Assembly (NCBI GenBank): GCA_048538235.1
Contig: JBLYPX010000001.1
Span: forward strand, 328,013 to 392,012
Direction of reading: 5' to 3'
Length of the DNA stretch: 64,000 nucleotides
From: Candidatus Komeilibacteria bacterium
GTDB taxonomy: Bacteria; Patescibacteriota; Patescibacteriia; UBA1558
Part shown: one piece after another, positions 14,071 to 37,453 of the stretch
How the letters are laid out: each line of letters starts with the position of its first letter
Numbering within the stretch: the stretch's first letter is position 1
Notes under the pieces: model-generated
What the model was told of the DNA's origin: nothing
Databases searched by the model: none
The model's input: only the letters and a program-made list of their open reading frames with translations
Translations under genes and position numbers: made by a program

Positions 14071-14245
14071 ATTCCTCTAAGGTTTTTATTGGCATGAAGT
14101 TATATGTTTCCAGACTGTCTTCACATATGAAGAGTGGTCTGGTCGTAAACATTACAACATGGGTAACTTTGTTTAAGCAGCAACCAGCTTCACAGGTTAT
14201 TGGTATAACAACTTCGTTATAATCATGACCTTCTGAGCCGATCAT
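14051..14245 (-). CDS. Small Cys-rich protein of unknown function (64 aa)
   Basis: The start ATG overlaps the upstream ORF's stop as ATGA (translational coupling). Cys pattern C-x3-CC...C. Confidence 0.4.
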   Translation of the reverse strand: MIGSEGHDYNEVVIPITCEAGCCLNKVTHVVMFTTRPLFICEDSLETYNFMPIKTLEEYKKDVE

Positions 14246-14466
14246 AATGTAAACCATCCTAAGGTGGCGAAGAGAACTATGCCAATTAAGCCAGTGAGCA
14301 AGTACTTTTTTGCGCGCTCTTCGTACTGTTGCCTTGCTCCGAGACCTCTAGCTACATTCTTTCTAATATCTGACAAAGTCATTTCATTTAAAATCTCAAC
14401 CATGAACATACCTTTGCCAAATATGATAAGGCTAATTAGCGCACCTAATATAACAACTATTTCCAT
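14242..14466 (-). CDS. Small two-TM membrane protein (74 aa)
   Basis: SD GGAGGG 3 nt upstream of the ATG. Two hydrophobic helices. Confidence 0.5.
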   Translation of the reverse strand: MEIVVILGALISLIIFGKGMFMVEILNEMTLSDIRKNVARGLGARQQYEERAKKYLLTGLIGIVLFATLGWFTL

Positions 14467-17755: not shown

Positions 17756-18817
17756 ATGTTTAAAAAGAAAAAAATAAAAGTTGCGGTAGGACTATCTGGT
17801 GGAGTAGATTCATCAGTAGCTGCATATATATTATCTAAGGATCCTCGTTATGAAGTGGTGGGTATATATATGCGTAACTGGTCAGAAGAATTACCAGAAA
17901 TTAAAGGATGTCCTTGGGAAACAGATCAAAGAGATGCTCAACTGGTAGCAGCTCAGCTTAATATACCTTTTTATGTAGTTAATTTTGAGAAAGAATATTA
18001 CGATAGAGTAGTTACATATATGATAAATACATATAAAAATGGACAGACTCCAAATCCAGATATTATGTGTAATCAAGAAATAAAGTTTGGAGTATTTTTA
18101 GATAAGATGTTAAAGCTTGGTTTTGACAAGGTAGCAACAGGCCATTATGCCAGAGTAGATAGAAAAGGTAAGGAATATTTTCTAAAAGCTGGACTAGATA
18201 ATAATAAAGATCAATCATATTTCTTATGCAGATTAAATCAACAGCAATTATCTAAAACACTATTTCCAATAGGAGACACAGATAAATCAAAGGTAAGGGA
18301 AATTGCTAAAGAAATTGGTTTAACAACCGCTACTAAAAAAGATTCACAAGGTATTTGCTTTATTGGCAATATTAAAGTTAGAGATTTCCTTAAAAGATAT
18401 ATTAAAGGAACTCCTGGTAATATTGTAGATATGGATAATAAAATAGTTGGTAAGCATGAGGGTGTGGAGTTCTTTACAATTGGTCAAAGAGAAGGATTGG
18501 ACGTTGGTGGTACAGGACCATACTATGTTGTGTCTAGAGATTTAAAGACAGGGGATTTAAAAGTTACTAATGATCCTGAAGATAAAGCTTTGTTTAAAAA
18601 AAATATTGAGCTTGAAAATATAAACTGGATAAACAAGCCAAAGAAGTTTCCATTTAACTGTGGCGTTAGAATTAGATACCGTCATGCTATTGTAGATTGT
18701 ACAGTTGAAAAAGATAAAATAATATTTAAAGAAGAACAAAAAGCAGTAACACCGGGACAATCTGCTGCTTTATACATAGCAGACAAATTAATAGGTTCAG
18801 GAATTATTAAAGAATAG
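17756..18817 (+). CDS. mnmA: tRNA 2-thiouridylase MnmA
   Basis: PP-loop VGLSGGVDSSVAAYIL and a MnmA C-terminal domain. Confidence 0.9.
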   Translation: MFKKKKIKVAVGLSGGVDSSVAAYILSKDPRYEVVGIYMRNWSEELPEIKGCPWETDQRDAQLVAAQLNIPFYVVNFEKEYYDRVVTYMINTYKNGQTPNPDIMCNQEIKFGVFLDKMLKLGFDKVATGHYARVDRKGKEYFLKAGLDNNKDQSYFLCRLNQQQLSKTLFPIGDTDKSKVREIAKEIGLTTATKKDSQGICFIGNIKVRDFLKRYIKGTPGNIVDMDNKIVGKHEGVEFFTIGQREGLDVGGTGPYYVVSRDLKTGDLKVTNDPEDKALFKKNIELENINWINKPKKFPFNCGVRIRYRHAIVDCTVEKDKIIFKEEQKAVTPGQSAALYIADKLIGSGIIKE

Positions 18818-18822
18818 CTATT

Positions 18823-18851
18823 TTCATATATTTAATATAGATGATATACTG
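18823..18851 (+). promoter_or_regulatory. Putative promoter of mini-ORF unit A (shares 20/21 nt with the TA-locus promoter at 29709-29729)
   Basis: TTCATA-16 nt-TATACT. The TATAGATGATATACT+GTAAT block is identical to the one at 29709. Confidence 0.4.
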
Positions 18852-18902
18852 TAATCAATGTCTCCATGTAAACCGGTAACCAAAGAAAAGGAGGTAAAGC
18901 TT

Positions 18903-18965
18903 ATGCTTGTACTCATTTTGGAAATTACCAGTCCTCTCGCCGGAAACAAGGAAGCCTCAATGTAG
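18903..18965 (+). CDS. Mini-ORF A (20 codons, MLVLILEITSPLAGNKEASM)
   Basis: Perfect SD AAGGAGGTA 8 nt upstream of ATG. Followed by an intrinsic terminator. Confidence 0.3.
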   Translation: MLVLILEITSPLAGNKEASM

Positions 18966-18993
18966 CCACAGATCGCGCTACGGAGAAAAAACC

Positions 18994-19025
18994 GAGCCCT
19001 CTCAATGTCAGAGGGCTCTTTCATT
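18994..19025 (+). terminator. Intrinsic terminator of unit A
   Basis: GAGCCCTCT-CAATGTC-AGAGGGCTC then TTTCATTT. Confidence 0.65.
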
Positions 19026-19123
19026 TGCTTAAAAAAGTAATAAAATATATAATTAATACATCCTTAAAGGATGTTTTTTAGTTCATTGGTTTTAACATGG
19101 TGTTAAACAAGGAGGTATAGCCT

Positions 19124-19168
19124 ATGTACACGAACAATTTTACCGCAACGCTGGACGTCAGCAACTGA
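19124..19168 (+). CDS. Mini-ORF B (14 codons, MYTNNFTATLDVSN)
   Basis: SD AAGGAGGTA 8 nt upstream. The leader is 16/18 identical to the unit A leader. A terminator follows. Confidence 0.25.
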   Translation: MYTNNFTATLDVSN

Positions 19169-19196
19169 TCAATCGTCGAAACCTGAAAAGTGAACT

Positions 19197-19230
19197 GAGC
19201 CCCCAACTTCTATGAAGAGGGGCTCTTTAA
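19197..19230 (+). terminator. Intrinsic terminator of unit B
   Basis: GAGCCCC...GGGGCTC stem followed by TTTAATTT. Confidence 0.5.
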
Positions 19231-19284
19231 TTTACATTTTTAGCTAATATTAGCCATATTTATATAATATTAACAGCTAAAACC

Positions 19285-19313
19285 TTGACAGAATTAAGAA
19301 AATAGTGTAAGTT
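19285..19313 (+). promoter_or_regulatory. Putative promoter ahead of the GC-rich leader (unit C)
   Basis: TTGACA-17 nt-TAAGTT. Upstream palindrome GCTAATATTAGC at 19243-19254. Confidence 0.3.
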
Positions 19314-19349
19314 CATTTTATCGCACATTTTATATTAATAGTAAAAAAA

Positions 19350-19838
19350 GCCTGATCAGGGCTGGTATGCGCATTAAAAGATCGGAAATTGCCGATGGTG
19401 CGCGAGTGCCAGCAGTTCTGCTTGCGTGATCGCAAGCCGACATGAGGCCGCGTTGAATCTTTGTAGCAAACTTGGGCAATACAAAGAGGATAATCTGCGT
19501 TATTCGCATATGAATCTAAACGACGGTAGAAGTGCCCTGGATGAACAACCTGCTTGGTCCCATACCCGGACGCATCATCGTGCGTAACGGTCCAGGTAAC
19601 TATAGCCTGGCTGACCAGCAGGAATCTGCCTACGGGAAAGGGCGGGAATTTGGCTGAAGCGAGACAGCATCGAAAAGCTTCTGGCCCCGGTTTGTTCGCA
19701 TGCCCGGCACGTAAAGTGGTGCCTGGATCTCATAACGTCTCAGACTTGAGTCGTTTATCATCCGCGAACATCTCCCGCCCTACCCGTTATCAAGACAAGT
19801 TCAACATCTTATTCCAACAACCTGACAAAGGAGGTAAA
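19350..19838 (+). ncRNA. GC-rich (~50% vs ~30% background), hairpin-dense non-coding leader or structured RNA of unknown class
   Basis: Neither strand has an ORF of 60 codons or more except an SD-less, compositionally odd 96-codon frame. Many local stems, for example CTTGCG-TGAT-CGCAAG (19421-19436), ACGCA-TCATCG-TGCGT (19570-19585), CCAGG-TAACTATAG-CCTGG (19592-19610). Confidence 0.3.
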
Positions 19839-19840
19839 TC

Positions 19841-19951
19841 ATGAATTTTTCACGTGGTAGTCCTAATGGCTTCAATTCCTGCCGTAGTGCAGTTAAAGCC
19901 AACATGACATCATCTTCGATCAACCTGGCCACCGGCGGTCGCATCGCCTGA
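19841..19951 (+). CDS. Mini-ORF C (36 codons, MNFSRGSPNGFNSCRSAVKANMTSSSINLATGGRIA)
   Basis: SD AAGGAGGTAAATC then ATG. Lies at the 3' end of the GC-rich leader. A terminator follows. Confidence 0.3.
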   Translation: MNFSRGSPNGFNSCRSAVKANMTSSSINLATGGRIA

Positions 19952-20011
19952 CCCAACACCCCGGAGAACATCCATGACACTGCCTGAACCTTTTTACTAG
20001 CTATGCAACAA

Positions 20012-20046
20012 TAAAAGACCGAGCAAACAAACGCTCGGTTTTTTTC
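20012..20046 (+). terminator. Intrinsic terminator of unit C, upstream of alaS
   Basis: ACCGAGC-AAACAAAC-GCTCGGT followed by a 7-T run. Confidence 0.7.
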
Positions 20047-20084
20047 TTGCTTTTTTAGCTAAAATATATATACTAAATATTACT

Positions 20085-21830
20085 ATGATTACTACCAAAG
20101 AATTAAGAAATAAATATTTGGACTTCTTTAAGTCTAAAAATCACGCCATTATTGATGGTGCTTGTTTGATTCCAGAAAACGATCCATCTGTACTATTTAC
20201 AACAGCTGGTATGCATCCTTTGGTGCCATATTTACTTGGAGAAAAACATCCAGCTGGAACAAAACTAACAGATTTCCAGAAATGTATTAGAACAGGAGAT
20301 ATTGATGAAGTTGGAGATAATGGTCACTTAACTTTCTTTGAAATGCTTGGTAATTGGTCACTGGGTGAGTATTTTAAGAAAGAAGCTATTGAAATGAGCT
20401 TTGAATTCTTAACCAAAGAATTAGGAATAGATATATCTAAATTAGCAGTTTCTGTTTTTGCTGGAGACAATGATTCTCCTAAAGATGTAGAATCTGCACA
20501 GATTTGGATGAGCTTAGGTGTTTCTGAAGATAGAATTGCATATTTAGGTAAAGAAGATAATTGGTGGGGTCCTGCTGGTATTACTGGTCCTTGTGGACCA
20601 GATAGTGAGATGTTCTATTGGACAGGCAAGGAAGAGGCACCAGCTAAATTTGACCCAGCAGACGATAGATGGCTTGAAATATGGAATGATGTGTTTATGC
20701 AATACAATAAAGCTGAAGATGGTAAATATATTCCTTTGGAACAAAAGAATGTAGATACAGGCATGGGTTTAGAAAGAACTGTCGCTATTCTAAATGGTTA
20801 CGATAATGTCTATGAAGTAGATACTATTAAACCTATCTATGATGAAGTTAAGTCTTTAGTTGAAGATAAAGATAATGTTAGAGCTATTAGAATAATTACA
20901 GATCATATTCGTGCAGCAGTTATGATTATAGGAGACGATAGAGGAGCAAGTCCTTCTAATGTAGATCAAGGTTACGTTGTTAGAAGACTCATTCGTTCAG
21001 CTATTAGAAGAAGTAGGGAAGTTGGTGCTCCAGATGATTGTGTTTTTAAAGTTGCAACTAAAGTTATTGAAGTAAGTAAAGAACTATATCCTGAGATAGA
21101 AAATAACAGACAAAGAGTATTGTCAGAAATTAAAGTTGAAACAGAAAAGTTTTCTAAAGTTTTAGGTAAGGGTGAAGAAATGGTTAAGGAATACATTAAA
21201 GACGGTAAGATTGATGCTAATGAAGCCTTTCAACTATATACAACCTATGGTTTTCCAATTGAAGAAATACAAAGATTGGGTGTTGAAGTAGATATGGCTG
21301 GTTTTCAAAAGCAGATTAAAGATCATCAAGATTTATCTAGAAAAGGTGCTGAACAAAAATTTAAAGGTGGTTTAGCAGATAATTCTGAAGAAACAACTGC
21401 ACTCCATACTGCAACTCATCTATTACATGCAGCTCTACGTAAAGTTTTAGGCGATCATGTAGCTCAGAAAGGTTCAAACATTACTGCAGATAGAGCCCGT
21501 TTTGACTTTTCCCATCCAGATAAGCTTACTGATGAAGAAAAGGAAAAAGTCACTAATATGATCAATGAAGTTATTGATGCTAAATTACCAGTTTCGGTTG
21601 AAGAAATGACTGTTGAAGAAGCAAAAAATGCTGGAGCTTTAGGTCTTTTTAACCAAAAATATGGGGATAAAGTTAAAGTATATACAGTCGGAGAGGGAAA
21701 TAATGTCTTTTCAAGAGAGATTTGTGGCGGTCCTCATGTTAAAAATACAGCTGATTTAGGGCATTTTCGTATAAAAAAAGAAGAAGCTTCATCTGCAGGT
21801 ATTAGACGTATTAAAGCAGTGCTGGAATAA
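20085..21830 (+). CDS. alaS: Alanyl-tRNA synthetase, short form lacking the C-Ala domain
   Basis: Class II catalytic core (FTTAGMHPLVPY, FFEMLGNWSLGEYFK) plus editing domain HTATHLLHAAL. Ends at 581 aa. Confidence 0.85.
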   Translation: MITTKELRNKYLDFFKSKNHAIIDGACLIPENDPSVLFTTAGMHPLVPYLLGEKHPAGTKLTDFQKCIRTGDIDEVGDNGHLTFFEMLGNWSLGEYFKKEAIEMSFEFLTKELGIDISKLAVSVFAGDNDSPKDVESAQIWMSLGVSEDRIAYLGKEDNWWGPAGITGPCGPDSEMFYWTGKEEAPAKFDPADDRWLEIWNDVFMQYNKAEDGKYIPLEQKNVDTGMGLERTVAILNGYDNVYEVDTIKPIYDEVKSLVEDKDNVRAIRIITDHIRAAVMIIGDDRGASPSNVDQGYVVRRLIRSAIRRSREVGAPDDCVFKVATKVIEVSKELYPEIENNRQRVLSEIKVETEKFSKVLGKGEEMVKEYIKDGKIDANEAFQLYTTYGFPIEEIQRLGVEVDMAGFQKQIKDHQDLSRKGAEQKFKGGLADNSEETTALHTATHLLHAALRKVLGDHVAQKGSNITADRARFDFSHPDKLTDEEKEKVTNMINEVIDAKLPVSVEEMTVEEAKNAGALGLFNQKYGDKVKVYTVGEGNNVFSREICGGPHVKNTADLGHFRIKKEEASSAGIRRIKAVLE

Positions 21831-21957: not shown

Positions 21958-22017
21958 ATGGTTAAAAACGTAAGATCTGAAGTGTGGTGTATTTTTTTTA
22001 CCCTGAATGGAAAATAA
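21958..22017 (+). CDS. Upstream leader mini-ORF (19 codons) overlapping the infA start
   Basis: SD AGAGGAA then ATG. Its stop TAA overlaps infA codons 3-4 (ATGGAAAATAA). infA itself has no SD. Confidence 0.25.
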
Positions 22018-22243
22018 CGAATTTGGAACAAATAAAAAAGGTTTTATTGAGGCAGTTGGCACTGTCATAGAATTATTGCCCGCTACAAACTTTAAAGTTG
22101 AGCTTGAAAATGGGCATGAGATTACAGCATACCTTTCTGGTAAATTAAGAAAATTTAGAATTAAAATTCTTCCTGGAGATAAGGTTAAAGTGGAAATGAG
22201 TCCATATGACTTAACTAAAGGTAGAATTACATATAGAAATTAA
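22007..22243 (+). CDS. infA: Translation initiation factor IF-1
   Basis: S1-like fold [21 protein letters not shown]...[21 protein letters not shown]. Confidence 0.85.
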
Positions 22244-22252
22244 ATTAATAAA

Positions 22253-22366
22253 ATGAAAGTTAGAGCTTCTGTAAAGAAAATGTGTAAAGATTGTAAGATT
22301 ACTCGCCGTAAAGGACGTGTAGTTTGTCTTTGTACAAATCCTAAACATAAGCAAAGACAAGGTTAA
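22253..22366 (+). CDS. rpmJ: 50S ribosomal protein L36
   Basis: [37 protein letters not shown]. Below the size cutoff of the ORF track. Confidence 0.85.
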
Positions 22367-22375
22367 TATAATACT

Positions 22376-22765
22376 ATGGCAAGAATCGCAAATGTAAATG
22401 TACCAAATGAAAAAAGAGTTGTTATTGGATTAACATATATCTATGGTATTGGTGCAACTACTGCAGCTAAAATATTAAAAGCTGTAAAGATAGATGAAAG
22501 TACAAGAGTCAAAGATTTAACTGAAGCTCAATTACAGACATTGAGAGATTTTATTGGTAAGTCACACAAAGTAGAAGGAGACTTAAGAAGAGAAGTTCTA
22601 CTTAATATTAAAAGATTAAAAGAAATTTCAGCATACCGTGGTTCTAGACATGCACGTTCTTTACCAGCACGTGGTCAAAGAACAAAGACTAATTCTAGAA
22701 CAGTTAGAGGTAATAAGAGAAGAACAATGGGTAGTGGTAAAGCTAAAGCTGCTGCTAAGACTTAA
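22376..22765 (+). CDS. rpsM: 30S ribosomal protein S13
   Basis: [26 protein letters not shown]... Confidence 0.9.
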
Positions 22766-22776
22766 TTTATACAAGT

Positions 22777-23229
22777 ATGTCACGTAAAAAAAGATTATTA
22801 GATAAACAAAGAAAAAGAGCAGTTAGTAAAAAAACTGTTGTTAATAAAGATAAGAAGCCTAAGCGTAAGAAAGTTAAACGTATTGTTAAACGTGGACAAG
22901 CTCACGTACAGGCTACATATAATAATACAATTGTAAGTATTTCAGATTTAAACGGTGGCGTATTAGCACAATCATCTGCAGGAGAGTCTGGTTTTAAAGG
23001 ACCAAAGAAAGCTACTCCATACGCAGCTACAGTTATTGTTAAAAACTTAGCTGAGAAAGTTAAGAATTATGGTGTACAAGAAGTAGATGTATTTGTTAAA
23101 GGTGTTGGTTCTGGAAGAGAATCAGCAGTACGTGCCTTACATGCTAATGGTATTAATGTTATGAGTATTAAGGACGTAACTCCAATACCACATAATGGCT
23201 GTAGACCTAAGAAACCTAGAAGAGTTTAA
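22777..23229 (+). CDS. rpsK: 30S ribosomal protein S11 with a ~30-aa basic N-terminal extension
   Basis: S11 core VSISDLNGGVLAQSSAGESGFKG... Confidence 0.88.
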   Translation: MSRKKRLLDKQRKRAVSKKTVVNKDKKPKRKKVKRIVKRGQAHVQATYNNTIVSISDLNGGVLAQSSAGESGFKGPKKATPYAATVIVKNLAEKVKNYGVQEVDVFVKGVGSGRESAVRALHANGINVMSIKDVTPIPHNGCRPKKPRRV

Positions 23230-23238
23230 TATAAATAT

Positions 23239-23853
23239 ATGGGAAGATATAGAGGACCAAAATGGAAACAATCAAGAAGAGAAGGCGTTGAACTTCGTGA
23301 AGAAGGGAAGCGTGCTTTAACCAAGAGAAATTATCCACCGGGTATTCATGGACCAATGTCTATGCGTAAACGTTTAACATCATATGGTAAACAGTTAAGA
23401 GAGAAACAGAAATGTAAACGTATGTACGGTGTATATGAAAAACAATTCTTGAATTATTATAAAAAAGCTGTTAACACAACTGGTAATGCTGCAGATAATC
23501 TTCGAACTCTACTTGAGTCTAGATTAGATAATGCTATTTACAGATTGGGTTGGGCTACTTCAAGACAACAAGCAAGACAGCTTGTTACACATGGTCATAT
23601 TGAAATAGACGGTAATAAGGTAGATATACCTTCATACCATGTAACTCCAGGCATGATCATAACTATTAAGAAATCATACCAAGATAAAGCATATTGGAAA
23701 GATGTTTTACCTAAAACTGCAAAGAAAGAAATGCCAGGTTGGATAGGCTATGATGCTACTAAAGCAGAAGCTACTATTACAACAGCTCCAGATATAGACG
23801 TTACAGTATCTATGTATGACGCTACTTTAATAATTGAATTTTATTCAAAATAA
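23239..23853 (+). CDS. rpsD: 30S ribosomal protein S4
   Basis: MGRYRGPKWKQSRREG... plus an S4 RNA-binding domain. Confidence 0.9.
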   Translation: MGRYRGPKWKQSRREGVELREEGKRALTKRNYPPGIHGPMSMRKRLTSYGKQLREKQKCKRMYGVYEKQFLNYYKKAVNTTGNAADNLRTLLESRLDNAIYRLGWATSRQQARQLVTHGHIEIDGNKVDIPSYHVTPGMIITIKKSYQDKAYWKDVLPKTAKKEMPGWIGYDATKAEATITTAPDIDVTVSMYDATLIIEFYSK

Positions 23854-23871
23854 AATCTTAACCAAAAAACT

Positions 23872-24666
23872 ATGTTGTCAATTACACCTCCACAAAATAT
23901 TACTTACAATGAACAAGCAGATAATAAAACTGAGGTTATTATTGAACCTTGTTATCCTGGATATGGTGTTACGATTGGTAATTCATTAAGAAGAGTATTA
24001 CTTGCATCACTAGATGGTGCTGCTATTGTCGGCTTTAAAATTAAAGGCGTAGATCATGAATTCTCAGCTATTGAGAATGTTAAAGAAGATGTGGTAGATA
24101 TTATACTTAATTTAAAGAAAGTAAGACTTAAAATTCATGAAATGCCAGAAGAAGGGGATGTAAGACTAACATTAAAGATGAGTGGTTCTAAAAAAGTAAC
24201 TGCTGGAGATATAGATAAAGATTCAAATGTAGAAATTATTAATAAAGATCAATTAATCGCTACTTTAACAGATGCCAAGGCTGAATTTGAAATGGAAATT
24301 TTTGCTAGAGTTGGTAGAGGTTATGAAACAGTTGAACAAAGAGATAAAGAAAAGTTAGAAATTGGTACAATTGCTATTGATTCACTTTACTCACCAGTTG
24401 TTAATGTAGGCTTTACTATTGAAAGTACTCGTGTTGGTGAAATGACTAACTATGAAAAGTTAATCATGTTAATTGAAACAGATGGTACTATTTCTACAGA
24501 AGATGCAGTAGATAGTTCAACTAAACTATTAGTAAATCAATTTACAGCTTTAATAAATTCTAAGGAAGAAAAAAAAGAGAAAAAGGTTAAATTAGAGGAA
24601 AAGGTTGAAGAACTTCCAGAAGAAGAGGCTGCTAAACCAGGAAGACCAAAAAAAGAAGATAAATAA
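23872..24666 (+). CDS. rpoA: RNA polymerase alpha subunit with NTD only and a K/E-rich tail instead of the CTD
   Basis: The alpha-NTD dimerisation region is conserved. The protein is 264 aa and ends EKKEKKVKLEEKVEELPEEEAAKPGRPKKEDK. Confidence 0.78.
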   Translation: MLSITPPQNITYNEQADNKTEVIIEPCYPGYGVTIGNSLRRVLLASLDGAAIVGFKIKGVDHEFSAIENVKEDVVDIILNLKKVRLKIHEMPEEGDVRLTLKMSGSKKVTAGDIDKDSNVEIINKDQLIATLTDAKAEFEMEIFARVGRGYETVEQRDKEKLEIGTIAIDSLYSPVVNVGFTIESTRVGEMTNYEKLIMLIETDGTISTEDAVDSSTKLLVNQFTALINSKEEKKEKKVKLEEKVEELPEEEAAKPGRPKKEDK

Positions 24667-24668
24667 TT

Positions 24669-25019
24669 ATGAGACATAATAAAACTACAGGTAAATTAAG
24701 TAGAAATGCAGGCGCTAGAAAATCACTAATGGCTAATTTAGCTATGCAGTTAATTATATTTGAAGGTATTACAACTACAGAAGCTAAAGCTAAAGAGCTT
24801 AGAAAGTATATTGAGCCAATGATAACAAAAGCCAAAAGAGGTAATTTAGCAGACAGACGTAAATTAATTGGTGTTTTGCCAATTAAGAAAGCTGTTGCTA
24901 AACTATTTGATGTAATTGGTCCAAAATATAAAGAAAGAAATGGTGGTTATACCAGAATTATTAAACTAGAACCTAGAGTAGGTGATGGTGCTAAAATGGC
25001 TAAAATTGAATTAGTATAA
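24669..25019 (+). CDS. rplQ: 50S ribosomal protein L17
   Basis: MRHNKTTGKLSRNAGARKSL... Confidence 0.9.
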   Translation: MRHNKTTGKLSRNAGARKSLMANLAMQLIIFEGITTTEAKAKELRKYIEPMITKAKRGNLADRRKLIGVLPIKKAVAKLFDVIGPKYKERNGGYTRIIKLEPRVGDGAKMAKIELV

Positions 25020-25021
25020 TT

Positions 25022-25381
25022 ATGAAATACAATAATAGAGAACATCATAAAATAGACGTTGAGGGTAAAGTAGCTGGCAGAATCGCTTCTGAAGTTGCTA
25101 AGATTTTAATTGGTAAGAATAAACCAGATTATGAACCTCATATAGATTCAGGAGATTATGTTGAAATTGCTAATGTAGATAAATTAGTATTTACTGGTAA
25201 TAAATTAGAGGATAAGAAATATCATAAATTTACTGGCTATATCGGTAATTTAAAAACAACTGTTCTTAAAGATTGGATGAATAAAAAACCAGATAAGCTT
25301 TTTCAGAGAATGGTTAGAAATATGTTACCAGATAATAGACTAAGAGCAGATAGATTAAAAAGATTAACTTTTAAGAAATAG
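25022..25381 (+). CDS. rplM: 50S ribosomal protein L13
   Basis: L13 family sequence. Position between rplQ and rpsI. Confidence 0.88.
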   Translation: MKYNNREHHKIDVEGKVAGRIASEVAKILIGKNKPDYEPHIDSGDYVEIANVDKLVFTGNKLEDKKYHKFTGYIGNLKTTVLKDWMNKKPDKLFQRMVRNMLPDNRLRADRLKRLTFKK

Positions 25382-25383
25382 AC

Positions 25384-25854
25384 ATGGCAGATACAGTAAC
25401 AAAAGAGAAACCTAAGGCAGCAGCTGTTAAAGCAGGAAATACACCTAAGGTTAAAAAATATAAAGGAATGTACCAATCAGTTGGTAAAAGAAAATCAGCT
25501 GTAGCTAGAGTACGTTTATCTGACAAAGGAGATAAAACAGAGATTGTTGTTAATGGTAAGCCAATGAATGAATATTTTAATAGTCCTATTTGGCAGAAAA
25601 CAATATTAGCTCCATTAGATATTACTGGTTATTTAAATAAGGTAGCTATTTCAGTAAAAGTTCAAGGTGGCGGACCTATGGGTCAAGCAGAAGCTATTCG
25701 TCATGGTATTGCTAAGATACTTGTAGGTATAAATGAAGCTCACCGTAAACCATTAAAAGTATTAGGCTTTTTAACTAGAGATCCTCGTGTTAAAGAAAGA
25801 AAGAAACCTGGTCTAAAACGTGCACGTCGTGCACCACAATGGTCAAAACGTTAA
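25384..25854 (+). CDS. rpsI: 30S ribosomal protein S9
   Basis: C-terminal ...GLKRARRAPQWSKR. Confidence 0.9.
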   Translation: MADTVTKEKPKAAAVKAGNTPKVKKYKGMYQSVGKRKSAVARVRLSDKGDKTEIVVNGKPMNEYFNSPIWQKTILAPLDITGYLNKVAISVKVQGGGPMGQAEAIRHGIAKILVGINEAHRKPLKVLGFLTRDPRVKERKKPGLKRARRAPQWSKR

Positions 25855-25974: not shown

Positions 25975-26370
25975 ATGAAAAACGCTTATAAATGGCTGTT
26001 GATTACATTTAGTGTTGTTATATACACCCTGATGATAATCTCGGGTGTACATCTCAAATTCTGGGAAATTTTCACCAGAGGAAATGTTTGGACAATGCTA
26101 TTACTAATAGTTTTGTTCCTAACAGTGTTTGTTGCTCGTCTTCTGGTGTATATCGCCAGTAAATGGGGAACAGCTCCGTGTAATCCAGTTGCTTTCGGTA
26201 TCGGAGTAGGAGTGTTTGTTGTTCTGAATATATTTCCATCAACAAGGGAATTGTTCTTTTTTAGACCGGCAGCTGGTATCGCCACCATAATTATGGTTAT
26301 TACAGATCTTCATGTAATGGCTAACTATATTATGGACGATGACAAAATTTACAATTCAGCTGAAAGTTAG
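25975..26370 (+). CDS. Integral membrane protein (4 TM), function unknown
   Basis: SD AAGGAGGGG, four hydrophobic helices, own terminator. Confidence 0.55.
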   Translation: MKNAYKWLLITFSVVIYTLMIISGVHLKFWEIFTRGNVWTMLLLIVLFLTVFVARLLVYIASKWGTAPCNPVAFGIGVGVFVVLNIFPSTRELFFFRPAAGIATIIMVITDLHVMANYIMDDDKIYNSAES

Positions 26371-27668: not shown

Positions 27669-27872
27669 ATGTATAGACCAAAAAGATTACCCAGACGCAA
27701 ATTTATTCAAATTTGTACAGAACAAGGTTTAGATAAATATACAGCTGAAAATTTGTATCTTCGTCTTAAATCTAAAAGGAAAATTCTGTTGGTAAATACA
27801 CCAAGTAATGTAGACTGGATAAGAGCCAGTGCTAGAAAAGCAGCTCTTCGCCAGGCGAAAAGCAAAACCTAA
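27669..27872 (+). CDS. Small basic protein, paralog 2 (67 aa)
   Basis: SD GAGGAG. Sequence QICTEQG...AENLY...ILLVNTPSNVDWIRASARKAAL. Confidence 0.5.
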   Translation: MYRPKRLPRRKFIQICTEQGLDKYTAENLYLRLKSKRKILLVNTPSNVDWIRASARKAALRQAKSKT

Positions 27873-30879: not shown

Positions 30880-30978
30880 TCAGGAGAAAAGCTGAACAAG
30901 AATAACAATGATGGAGGCTACGATTCCGATAAAAACAAGCGTTGGGTATTTCGTTGTGATTGTGATTTTTACAGTCAT
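30880..30978 (-). CDS. Small single-TM peptide (32 aa, MTVKITITTKYPTLVFIGIVASIIVILVQLFS)
   Basis: SD AAGGAGGATAAA then ATG. Hydrophobic C-terminal helix and its own terminator. Below the ORF-track cutoff. Confidence 0.4.
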   Translation of the reverse strand: MTVKITITTKYPTLVFIGIVASIIVILVQLFS

Positions 30979-36950: not shown

Positions 36951-37202
36951 TTATTTGAGGCGCCAGAGTCTTAACAAGGCAACTTCAAATATGCTGAAAT
37001 GTGCGGCGAAGGCGTTTGCCTTGGCAATACCTTGCAATTGAAATTTGATCTCAGTAACTGTGTTTTCCCAAGACTCTCCCAGTTCAATATACTGTTCCAG
37101 GATATTGCTAAACTCTACAATGAAATCTCCAAGTTTAGCCTTGTCTTCAATCATAGCGCTCAAGTGAACCATGATTTCTGCAAGATAATTAATACCAGTC
37201 AT
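36951..37202 (-). CDS. Small hypothetical protein (83 aa), second gene of a coupled pair
   Basis: SD GAGGAGG then ATG (MTGINYLAEIM...). The ORF-track start overlaps the upstream stop as ATGA. Confidence 0.45.
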   Translation of the reverse strand: MTGINYLAEIMVHLSAMIEDKAKLGDFIVEFSNILEQYIELGESWENTVTEIKFQLQGIAKANAFAAHFSIFEVALLRLWRLK

Positions 37203-37216
37203 TTTTCCTCCTCTTG

Positions 37217-37453
37217 TCATTGAAAGATGAAATTTATCATCTCAAGATACTTGTGCTGTCGTTCAGCGTTAAATTTGCCCTTGTGAAAGCTTTCTAAAGT
37301 ATCTCTGGTTTCCTGAATCGACTTTGACCCCTGTTGATATCTCATCATGGAAACATAGAGTATGCCAAGAAAATCCTGTAACTCTTTCGGATCATGAAAT
37401 ACTACTAAAGCTAGTTCAAGCACATCACATAGATCATTGTTACCGAGTAGCAT
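37217..37453 (-). CDS. Small hypothetical protein (78 aa), first gene of a coupled pair
   Basis: Predicted helical. No recognisable motif. Confidence 0.45.
   Translation of the reverse strand: MLLGNNDLCDVLELALVVFHDPKELQDFLGILYVSMMRYQQGSKSIQETRDTLESFHKGKFNAERQHKYLEMINFIFQ

Follow-up and report, generated by a model that had tools for sequence, protein, structure and literature searches.

The region analysed here is the gap between the genes mnmA and alaS, which we call the island, at positions 18818–20084 of a stretch of 64 kb (the window) with a GC content of 31.6%, whose closest MnmA proteins are those of uncultured Candidatus Komeilibacteria in the Patescibacteria or candidate phyla radiation (CPR) group. 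The gene order is secA, a cytidylyltransferase-like gene, mnmA (17756–18817), the island and alaS (20085–21830, 581 amino acids), with infA, rpmJ, rpsM, rpsK and rpsD downstream, these five being assigned from their positions and the order annotated in relatives. The 1.27 kb of the island hold three plus-strand units, A, B and C, each of which consists of a promoter-like tract, the Shine-Dalgarno (SD) sequence AAGGAGGT, an ATG, a short open reading frame (ORF) and an intrinsic terminator. The copies of AAGGAGGT at 18888, 19109 and 19828 are three of only four in the window, and the ATGs that follow them (18903, 19124 and 19841) open frames of 20, 14 and 36 codons. The SDs, ATGs, terminators and ORF lengths given in an initial annotation of this DNA were all recovered, and the leaders of A and B are, as it reported, identical at 16 of 18 positions. 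Its statement that the three units share an identical design holds for A and B only, as the SD of unit C lies about 520 nucleotides (nt) downstream of its promoter and the interval is a conserved structured RNA.

We compared the island with the parallel regions on the contigs that carry the closest MnmA proteins; these represent nine lineages (MnmA 61–91% identical), were taken from JGI, NCBI, ENA and Logan assemblies, and are designated below by L numbers. L081 is the closest relative, and the window, L081 and L082 make up the clade 1 alignment, while L084 and L086 constitute clade 2. The gap between mnmA and alaS is 1.1–1.7 kb long in all nine lineages, with alaS annotated next wherever the downstream gene could be scored. 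The number of plus-strand terminators per gap ranges from one to six, with at least two in eight lineages. The order mnmA, gap, alaS, infA, rpmJ, rpsM recurs on independent metagenomic contigs. The initial annotation had raised the possibilities that the island is strain-specific, or that it is a scaffold join or contaminant; its conservation in nine lineages and the identical synteny on independent contigs speak against both. The window and L081 are 83% identical over the 1282 columns of the whole island, compared with 61–72% at the fourfold-degenerate sites of the flanking mnmA and alaS genes, which indicates that the island is under purifying selection at the nucleotide level. The units vary in number, type and order among the lineages (alaS, for example, is preceded by RNA C in the window, by a B-type unit in L084 and by a unit of another type in L086), and the locus behaves like an array of independent small genes. 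Two further related contigs stop before or inside the island. Altogether, several contigs end inside the locus or within 1–2 kb of it, namely L213 (end 6413), L214 (end 5944), L084, L086 and L087, and these ends may reflect strain variation or repeats that break assemblies.

The island also stands out in its composition. Its GC content is 42% overall and locally up to 58% (50–58% in RNA C), and 19351–20050 is the sole stretch of the window, besides one tRNA pair, with at least 45% GC; the GC profile bears out the alternating base composition that had been described earlier. Terminator-like sites are in excess, nine being found in the scan against 1.5 expected. A GC-rich hairpin followed by a U tract was found by the scan at 18994–19018 and 20013–20044, and was recognized at 19197–19225 from the sequence together with RNAfold. 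The A and C terminators (18994–19018 and 20018–20039) score on the minus strand as well, with A-runs ahead of their stems, and may act bidirectionally. The design of the island is not seen in the two other long intergenic gaps of the window. The initial annotation saw no protein-sized ORF here on either strand; ORFs of 96 amino acids (19554–19844, plus strand) and 66 amino acids (18824–19024, minus strand) do exist, but both are broken by 1–2-nt indels in L081 and their translated similarity fades outside near-identical DNA, so neither appears to be real and the earlier statement stands in substance. Pfam has no family for either of them.

The features of unit C are as follows (in this and the following lists, "scan" marks features found by a consensus or terminator scan and "read" those read directly from the sequence):

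19241–19256, no strand: palindrome TAGCTAATATTAGCCA, a candidate transcription-factor site, whose centre precedes the putative start of RNA C by about 72 nt
19285–19313, plus strand: RNA C promoter, TTGACA, 17-nt spacer, and TAAGTT preceded by ATAGTG
19320–20050, plus strand: RNA C, about 730 nt, with a structured core, a 3' SD/mini-ORF module and a terminator; fold z-score −4.0
19339–19347, plus strand: 5' strand of the closing helix P1, TAGTAAAAA, which pairs with TTTTTACTA at 19991–19999
19355–19541, plus strand: 5' domain of the core, helices 1–8 of the clade 1 consensus, several with compensatory pairs
19547–19624, plus strand: middle domain, a hairpin with the conserved loop GTAACTATA
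19623–19797, plus strand: 3' domain of the core, 49 pairs in 8 helices
19828–19951, plus strand: SD (19828–19835) and mini-ORF C1 (19841–19951, 36 codons and stop)
19974–20000, plus strand: mini-ORF C2, MTLPEPFY, whose end overlaps the 3' strand of P1
20013–20044, plus strand: terminator of RNA C (scan), 95% identical in L081 and conserved in L082, L084 and L086

Orthologues of RNA C are present in L081, L082, L084 and L086. The fold of the core, which comprises the first ~480 nt of the RNA, was obtained with RNAalifold from a plain MAFFT alignment of the window, L081 and L082, with slid pairing partners and 500 shuffles as controls. It has 131 pairs in 19 helices; 95% of the alignment cells pair, versus 35–39% when the partners are slid, and 24 of the 131 pairs show double changes, versus 0–5 in the slid controls, a number that is reached in none of the 500 shuffles. 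The core thus has compensatory changes in excess of both the shifted and the shuffled controls, as is expected of a structured non-coding RNA. A covariance model of the 3' domain that was built from clade 1 only finds the syntenic site in L084 (E = 1e-4) and in L086 (E = 4e-3). When the five sequences are aligned by fitting them to the model, 92% of the cells in this domain pair (39–52% when slid), and, in the same fitted alignment, 27 of the 49 pairs have changes on both sides, which no shuffle of 500 equals. In the middle domain, the loop GTAACTATA is kept in four of the five RNAs on stems that differ in sequence (CCAGG/CCTGG in the window, CCAAG/CTTGG in L082 and GACGG/CCGTC in L084). The complementarity of the two ends that forms P1 is kept in all five RNAs, including that of L082, which has no mini-ORF, and is seen in the minimum-energy fold as well. 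The L082 orthologue has the core, P1 and the terminator and is missing the entire SD/mini-ORF segment, so the core appears to be a stand-alone RNA, with the ORF module as an optional insert.

Upstream of RNA C, the promoter pattern TTGACA-N11-ATAGTGTA is conserved in the window, L081, L083, L084, L088 and L090, and variants of the palindrome occupy the equivalent place in L081, L084, L086, L087, L090 and L213. The palindrome TAGCTAATATTAGCCA has no other close match in the window, where the remaining sites have two or three mismatches and occur at the level of chance. It is probably the binding site of a regulator, and its conserved position ahead of the promoter suggests that RNA C is probably regulated by a dimeric DNA-binding protein. 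A model of all five sequences (R2) finds no further copy of RNA C in the window or in 80 mnmA loci of other phyla. In L087 (6360–6950) and L090 (6290–6610) the slot of RNA C contains a GC-rich, RNA-like segment of other sequence, neither of which is found by R2; the L087 segment sits behind an RNA C-type palindrome and TTGACA promoter and has pairing between its 5' and 3' ends (UAAAAGGC/GCCUUUUA), and the L090 segment lies just upstream of its palindrome and promoter. The L087 RNA may be a very divergent homologue of RNA C.

Units A and B are smaller and resemble one another:

18821–18850, plus strand: promoter-like site of unit A, TTTTCA, 18-nt spacer, extended −10 TGaTATACT (scan); conserved in L081
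18857–19027, plus strand: small RNA A, about 170 nt, with an SD-ATG box, a variable body and a terminator
18888–18905, plus strand: SD-ATG box of A, AAGGAGGTAAAGCTTATG, identical in L081 and similar in L086 (GGAGGAAAAGCCTATG)
18903–18965, plus strand: mini-ORF A, 20 codons and stop, MLVLILEITSPLAGNKEASM
18994–19018, plus strand: terminator of A, a 9-bp stem followed by TTTCATTT (scan); 97% identical in L081
19025–19053, plus strand: candidate promoter of unit B, a weak −35 TTGCTT, 17-nt spacer and a perfect TATAAT (read)
19058–19233, plus strand: small RNA B, about 175 nt, with a 5'-terminal hairpin (19058–19074), a closing helix, a single-stranded SD, a variable body and a terminator
19109–19126, plus strand: SD-ATG box of B, AAGGAGGTATAGCCTATG (read)
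19124–19168, plus strand: mini-ORF B, 14 codons and stop, MYTNNFTATLDVSN
19197–19225, plus strand: terminator of B, GAGCCCCC...GGGGCTC followed by TTTAATTT (read), present in the RNAfold minimum-energy structure and conserved in L081 and L082

A and B are paralogous small RNAs of ~170 nt. The A- and B-type units of four genomes align as one family (family alignment A9) with SD boxes that follow the pattern GGAG..A...CYTATG, bodies that vary and a common terminator tail, TCTTTNATTTG, from which the −35-like hexamer of the next promoter is drawn; the tail of the A terminator overlaps the TTGCTT that follows it in just this way. RNA A, whose start we place near 18857 by pattern match only, is 84–97% identical to its L081 counterpart in most segments, has a fold z-score of −2.2 and has an A-type orthologue in L086. 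RNA B has a fold z-score of −3.5. Its promoter falls below the −35 threshold of the scan, and L082 has TTGACT-17-TATAAT at the equivalent place. The consensus fold of four B-type units shows compensatory changes in 9 of 31 pairs, a modest degree of support, and in these units the SD is single-stranded and lies between two hairpins. In five A/B-type units the stop codon is 26–30 nt ahead of the terminator. Another conserved type of small RNA, on the plus strand and absent from the window, directly follows mnmA in L084 (6069–6265), L086 (5824–6018) and L082 (~1230–1390); its CUCC motifs CUCUCCUUAUG, CUCUCCUU and ACUCCUUUUUC are complementary to neighbouring SD boxes (up to 10 bp with GAAAAAGGAG), and it could be an anti-SD regulator of the neighbouring unit RNAs.

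The SD-ATG module is a recurrent feature of these gaps. There are three to seven plus-strand modules per gap in seven of the nine lineages, versus about 1.3 in shuffled sequences and none to two on the minus strand. The spacing of 6–9 nt between SD and ATG is kept while the wording of the SD varies (GGAGG, GGAGA, GAGGT), and the module is present in nearly every unit of nearly every relative, as is expected of a conserved initiation region. This frequency has to be seen against the usage of the remaining genes of the window, where no SD-like motif precedes 51 of the 63 ORFs of at least 100 amino acids, among them secA, mnmA, alaS and the genes for ribosomal proteins (for example, the starts at 20085 and from 22007 to 25384). 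Perfect GGAGG sequences precede a minority of mostly small, hydrophobic proteins without known family, clustered at about 26–32 kb; strong SDs are found at 25975, 27328, 28779, 30731, 30978, 31303, 31687, 37202 and 50717. Other gaps of the window also contain small, apparently unannotated ORFs (32–83 amino acids) with a perfect SD, at 30880–30978 (minus), 14242–14466 (minus), 27669–27872 (plus) and 36951–37453 (minus); one encodes a hydrophobic single-helix peptide of 32 residues, and none matches Pfam. At the gene starts 1450, 2042, 20085, 33464 and 60910 a TATAAT-like box ends 5–10 nt before the ATG, which suggests that such genes have leaderless or nearly leaderless mRNAs.

The peptides behind the modules show none of this constancy. 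The lengths of mini-ORFs A, B and C1 match those in shuffled sequences (P = 0.38, 0.48 and 0.23, respectively) and the remaining frames are equally open, so the ORFs are no longer than chance would make them. Compared with L081, mini-ORF A has six substitutions, all non-synonymous, with 20 of 20 third positions identical; mini-ORF B, at 76% identity, is the least conserved segment of its unit, and every changed codon alters the amino acid; mini-ORF C1 has two synonymous and about five non-synonymous changes and one 3-nt indel. By codon position the mini-ORFs are identical to those of L081 at 66/78, 68/78 and 74/78 sites, and it is thus the third position that is most conserved; in the flanking genes the third-position identity is 0.69–0.76 (binomial P about 1e-6). 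The constraint is therefore not on protein. Orthologous peptides are alike only in their first 3–4 residues. The peptides are polar for the most part, with an abundance of N, S and T (only the first 8 residues of A, MLVLILEI, are hydrophobic), and neither Pfam nor NCBIfam has a match for them. C1 is found in L081, L084 and L086 (21–37 codons) and is missing in L082, and an ORF of L090 has seven codons that lie inside the terminator hairpin. The "PFY stop" ending of C2 is explained by the 3' strand of P1, since L082 keeps this strand without any ATG. Thus the relaxed third positions, synonymous excess and alignable peptides that mark purifying selection on a protein are all lacking. Since SD and ATG are conserved while the peptides are not, it is ribosome binding or initiation that looks selected. 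L083 (6900–7600, gap positions 829–1500) carries three paralogous units with ORFs of 26, 39 and 41 codons, one of which is called a gene in the source annotation; the ORFs share M-x-V-K and a T-x-R-(R/S)-V motif, the latter overlapping a CUACG...CGUAG hairpin.

Searches for known families were negative throughout. At the gathering score, Rfam 15 gives only three tRNAs in the whole window, and in the island it gives only noise at E values up to 10 (best match 24 bits, gathering score 60); the nine related loci likewise gave no Rfam match. A transfer-messenger RNA (tmRNA) was considered and rejected, as neither ARAGORN nor Rfam finds one and the ORFs here have an SD and an AUG, neither of which is present in a tmRNA tag ORF. 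Sensitive blastn searches of E. coli genomes, plasmids and phages gave no match to the island. A scan of a genome collection with MnmA gave, among the matches listed, only relatives of at most 52% identity, and exact look-ups of the MnmA and InfA of the window returned no record. With an 18-base core motif, a metagenome scan gave one chance match, in a transporter-like ORF of a high-GC organism (L212), and a viral scan gave nothing; with the SD-box motif, ordinary phage gene starts were among the matches listed in the viral scan, so this motif alone is unspecific. We found nothing in the literature on small or large non-coding RNAs of this kind in CPR bacteria.

The units share the strand of an aminoacyl-tRNA synthetase gene and lie upstream of it, and in each of them the SD and mini-ORF precede a terminator. 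This invites the explanation that they are leader-peptide attenuators or T-box-like leaders, by which translation or the charging of tRNA-Ala would determine how much transcription reads through into alaS and the infA/ribosomal-protein operon. The pheST leader and the T-box of Firmicute alaS genes are precedents, and the constant distance between stop and terminator is what an attenuator would have. The initial annotation had listed attenuation among its readings, and we judge it very improbable. The T-box model RF00230 has no match at E values up to 10 on 18700–20200, and alanine codons are not enriched (2/20, 1/14, 4/36 and 0/8 in A, B, C1 and C2). Antiterminator pairing of the 5' arm of each terminator with RNA upstream of it is no better than chance, shuffled arms being at least as good in fractions of 0.13, 0.89 and 0.45, and the best such pairing is 6–9 kcal/mol weaker than the terminator hairpin; with no antiterminator partner above chance, the terminators look constitutive. 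Each unit has, by pattern, a promoter of its own, the unit next to alaS differs between the window, L084 and L086, and the −10 box of alaS itself lies beyond the last terminator:

20047–20074, plus strand: candidate promoter of alaS, TTGCTT in the terminator tail, 16-nt spacer, TATACT at 20069–20074 (read)

This −10 box ends 10 nt before the ATG at 20085, and the arrangement is alike in L081, L082, L084 and L086. The AlaS protein has 581 amino acids in the window, L081 and L082, where it consists of the catalytic domain and a short second additional domain without the C-terminal region; in the more distant relatives L083, L088 and L090 it has 707–737. A tandem type I toxin-antitoxin locus of small toxic peptides, which had been suggested by the hydrophobic start of peptide A, would account for the varying number of small-ORF units in a single intergenic region, and the small RNA of L082, L084 and L086 with CUCUCCUU and ACUCCUUUUUC motifs complementary to SD boxes could be counted in its favour. 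Since the peptides are for the most part polar and lack conservation, this idea fails; most are also too short or hydrophilic to span a membrane. The scan of the window revealed neither an antisense promoter or RNA nor, on the minus strand, any promoter above chance. The small RNA with CUCC motifs is missing from the window itself, and the sole Rfam antitoxin match (ohsC, E 4.4) is noise. We hold such a locus to be extremely unlikely. That the island might be an assembly artefact, a contaminant or a decayed remnant of foreign DNA is brought to mind by its deviant GC content and by the related contigs that end in or near it; with the gene order unchanged in independent JGI, NCBI, ENA and Logan assemblies, with purifying selection and compensatory base-pair changes, and with no BLAST match to E. 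coli genomes, plasmids or phages, we can give this virtually no credence.

We consider it probable, short of confident, that the island is a lineage-specific cluster of three independent plus-strand RNA genes whose function lies in the RNAs and not in the peptides. Among the earlier suggestions, that of small RNAs with incidental ORFs fits best, in that the nucleotides are conserved and a 480-nt fold covaries, although the conservation of SD and ATG indicates that the ORFs are perhaps not wholly incidental. The anatomy of the locus, its conservation, the constraint at the RNA level and the covarying fold are shown by the data, and the transcription starts, the engagement of ribosomes and any cellular role are our inference. 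Several observations weigh against it. The promoters, starts and transcript ends are pattern matches; RNA C is known from five sequences in two clades, and the five-sequence alignment was fitted to the model; A and B covary little outside the closing helix and the terminator. R2 finds no RNA C in L083 (79% MnmA identity), L087, L088 or L090, from which it appears that RNA C is narrowly distributed and dispensable. The complementarity of RNAs A, B and C to the rest of the window amounts to chance-level 11–14-mers in coding regions, and this search identified no target or partner. Finally, the conserved ATG and the conserved position of the stop in the five A/B-type units fit real translation, and two of the paralogous L083 ORFs, of 39 and 41 codons, exceed the length expected by chance by a narrow margin (P = 0.048 and 0.040), with one frame open and the two others full of stops, so some members of the family may encode peptides. 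These last points lead to the alternative that the units are genuine small-protein genes, in which peptides of 14–36 residues, evolving very fast in the manner of signalling, antimicrobial or interaction peptides, are the functional product and the conserved RNA is only an expression signal. The perfect SD at ideal spacing from a conserved ATG in nearly all units agrees with this, as do the strong SDs elsewhere in the genome, which precede real accessory small or membrane proteins; the lone indel in C1 is of 3 nt, and the C1 frames of L084 and L086 are both 21 codons long and share the N-terminus M-x-x-A-R-x-G-P, within which two changes are synonymous. On the other hand, the third codon positions are the most conserved where those of the flanking genes are at ~70%, nearly all substitutions are non-synonymous, the peptides cannot be aligned past 3–4 residues and match no family, the ORF lengths are those of chance, the ORF is reduced to seven codons within a terminator hairpin in L090 and C1 is absent in L082, and the covarying 480-nt core would be left unexplained. 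The nucleotides, and not the peptides, are what is conserved; the initial annotation, which had listed small peptide genes among its readings, had itself named this outcome as one that would weaken its finding, and we think this alternative unlikely, though it deserves to be kept in mind.

If the island is such a cluster of RNA genes, each gene would have its own sigma-70-type promoter and a constitutive intrinsic terminator, with the U-rich tail of the terminator running into the −35 region of the next promoter. RNAs A and B would consist of a 5' hairpin or closing helix, an exposed SD and AUG, a fast-changing body and the terminator, and RNA C would have its ends paired by P1, three conserved domains in its first ~480 nt and the optional SD/mini-ORF module at its 3' side. 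The SD-AUG modules are probably binding sites for ribosomes or 30S subunits, and translation of the short ORFs may follow. Such engagement would presumably act in cis, either by protection from nucleases, as in STAB-SD elements and other 5' stabilisers, or by remodelling of the fold, as in dual-function small RNAs, and we do not think that it serves the production of a functional peptide. A more speculative idea, which we hold to be decidedly unlikely, is that the SD-box RNAs are abundant ribosome decoys, whose perfect, exposed SD-AUG titrates free 30S subunits or an SD-binding factor and so shifts the balance between the translation of SD-led accessory genes and SD-independent core genes. Were this true, RNA C, which lies behind a conserved operator, could titrate under regulation; as a large structured RNA in which a fold for sensing or scaffolding is linked to a module that binds ribosomes, it would represent a new class.

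The nearest analogues of the island appear to be functional only. The dual-function small RNAs (S. aureus RNAIII/hld, SgrS/SgrT and B. subtilis SR1/SR1P) are, like the island RNAs, structured and independently transcribed from their own promoter to their own terminator, with an SD-led ORF of ~20–40 codons, and RNAIII resembles RNA C in its size, layout and upstream regulator site. They differ in that their peptides are conserved, and there is no relationship in sequence or Rfam; the island has no identified target or pairing motif, and one RNA C orthologue is without an ORF. The STAB-SD elements and 5' stabilisers (the B. thuringiensis cryIIIA leader and the ermC leader) have a perfect SD-like element selected for binding of the ribosome or 30S subunit, as the island may have, which would be an analogy of mechanism only; they belong to leaders of long mRNAs and work without a start codon, whereas the island conserves the ATG and lacks a cargo gene. 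OLE, ROOL, GOLLD, raiA and HEARO share with RNA C a multi-domain architecture of several hundred nt, covariation, their own promoter and terminator, GC-rich islands in an AT-rich genome and the lack of an obvious cis target; their Rfam models have no match to the island even at E values up to 10, and RNA C has only five representatives in one narrow CPR lineage, a core of ~480 nt and a translation-initiation module. The leaders of E. coli pheST and Firmicute alaS also have a mini-ORF followed by an intrinsic terminator upstream of a synthetase gene, unlike which the island has no enrichment of cognate codons, no antiterminator and no T-box, and has independent promoters and a variable unit order. 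The tandem type I loci ldr/rdl, ibs/sib and zor/orz are made up of repeated small-ORF units whose copy number varies between relatives, as in the island, whose peptides, however, are neither hydrophobic nor conserved and for which no antisense partner was found in the window.

CPR bacteria have very small genomes and, to our knowledge, essentially no described regulatory RNAs. The significance of the present findings is limited by the narrow distribution of RNA C (five genomes) and by the absence of a functional clue. Nevertheless, it is apparent that a whole CPR lineage keeps 1.1–1.7 kb of non-coding DNA between two housekeeping genes, filled with what appear to be RNA genes. To the RNAs already described this adds a candidate large structured RNA, with a fold of ~480 nt, unusually clear covariation and nothing like it in Rfam, and a family of SD-bearing small RNAs, both from a part of the tree that is not yet culturable. 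That SDs occur on RNAs without conserved peptides, in a genome with SD-less core genes, raises a testable question about the role that ribosome binding may have in these organisms.

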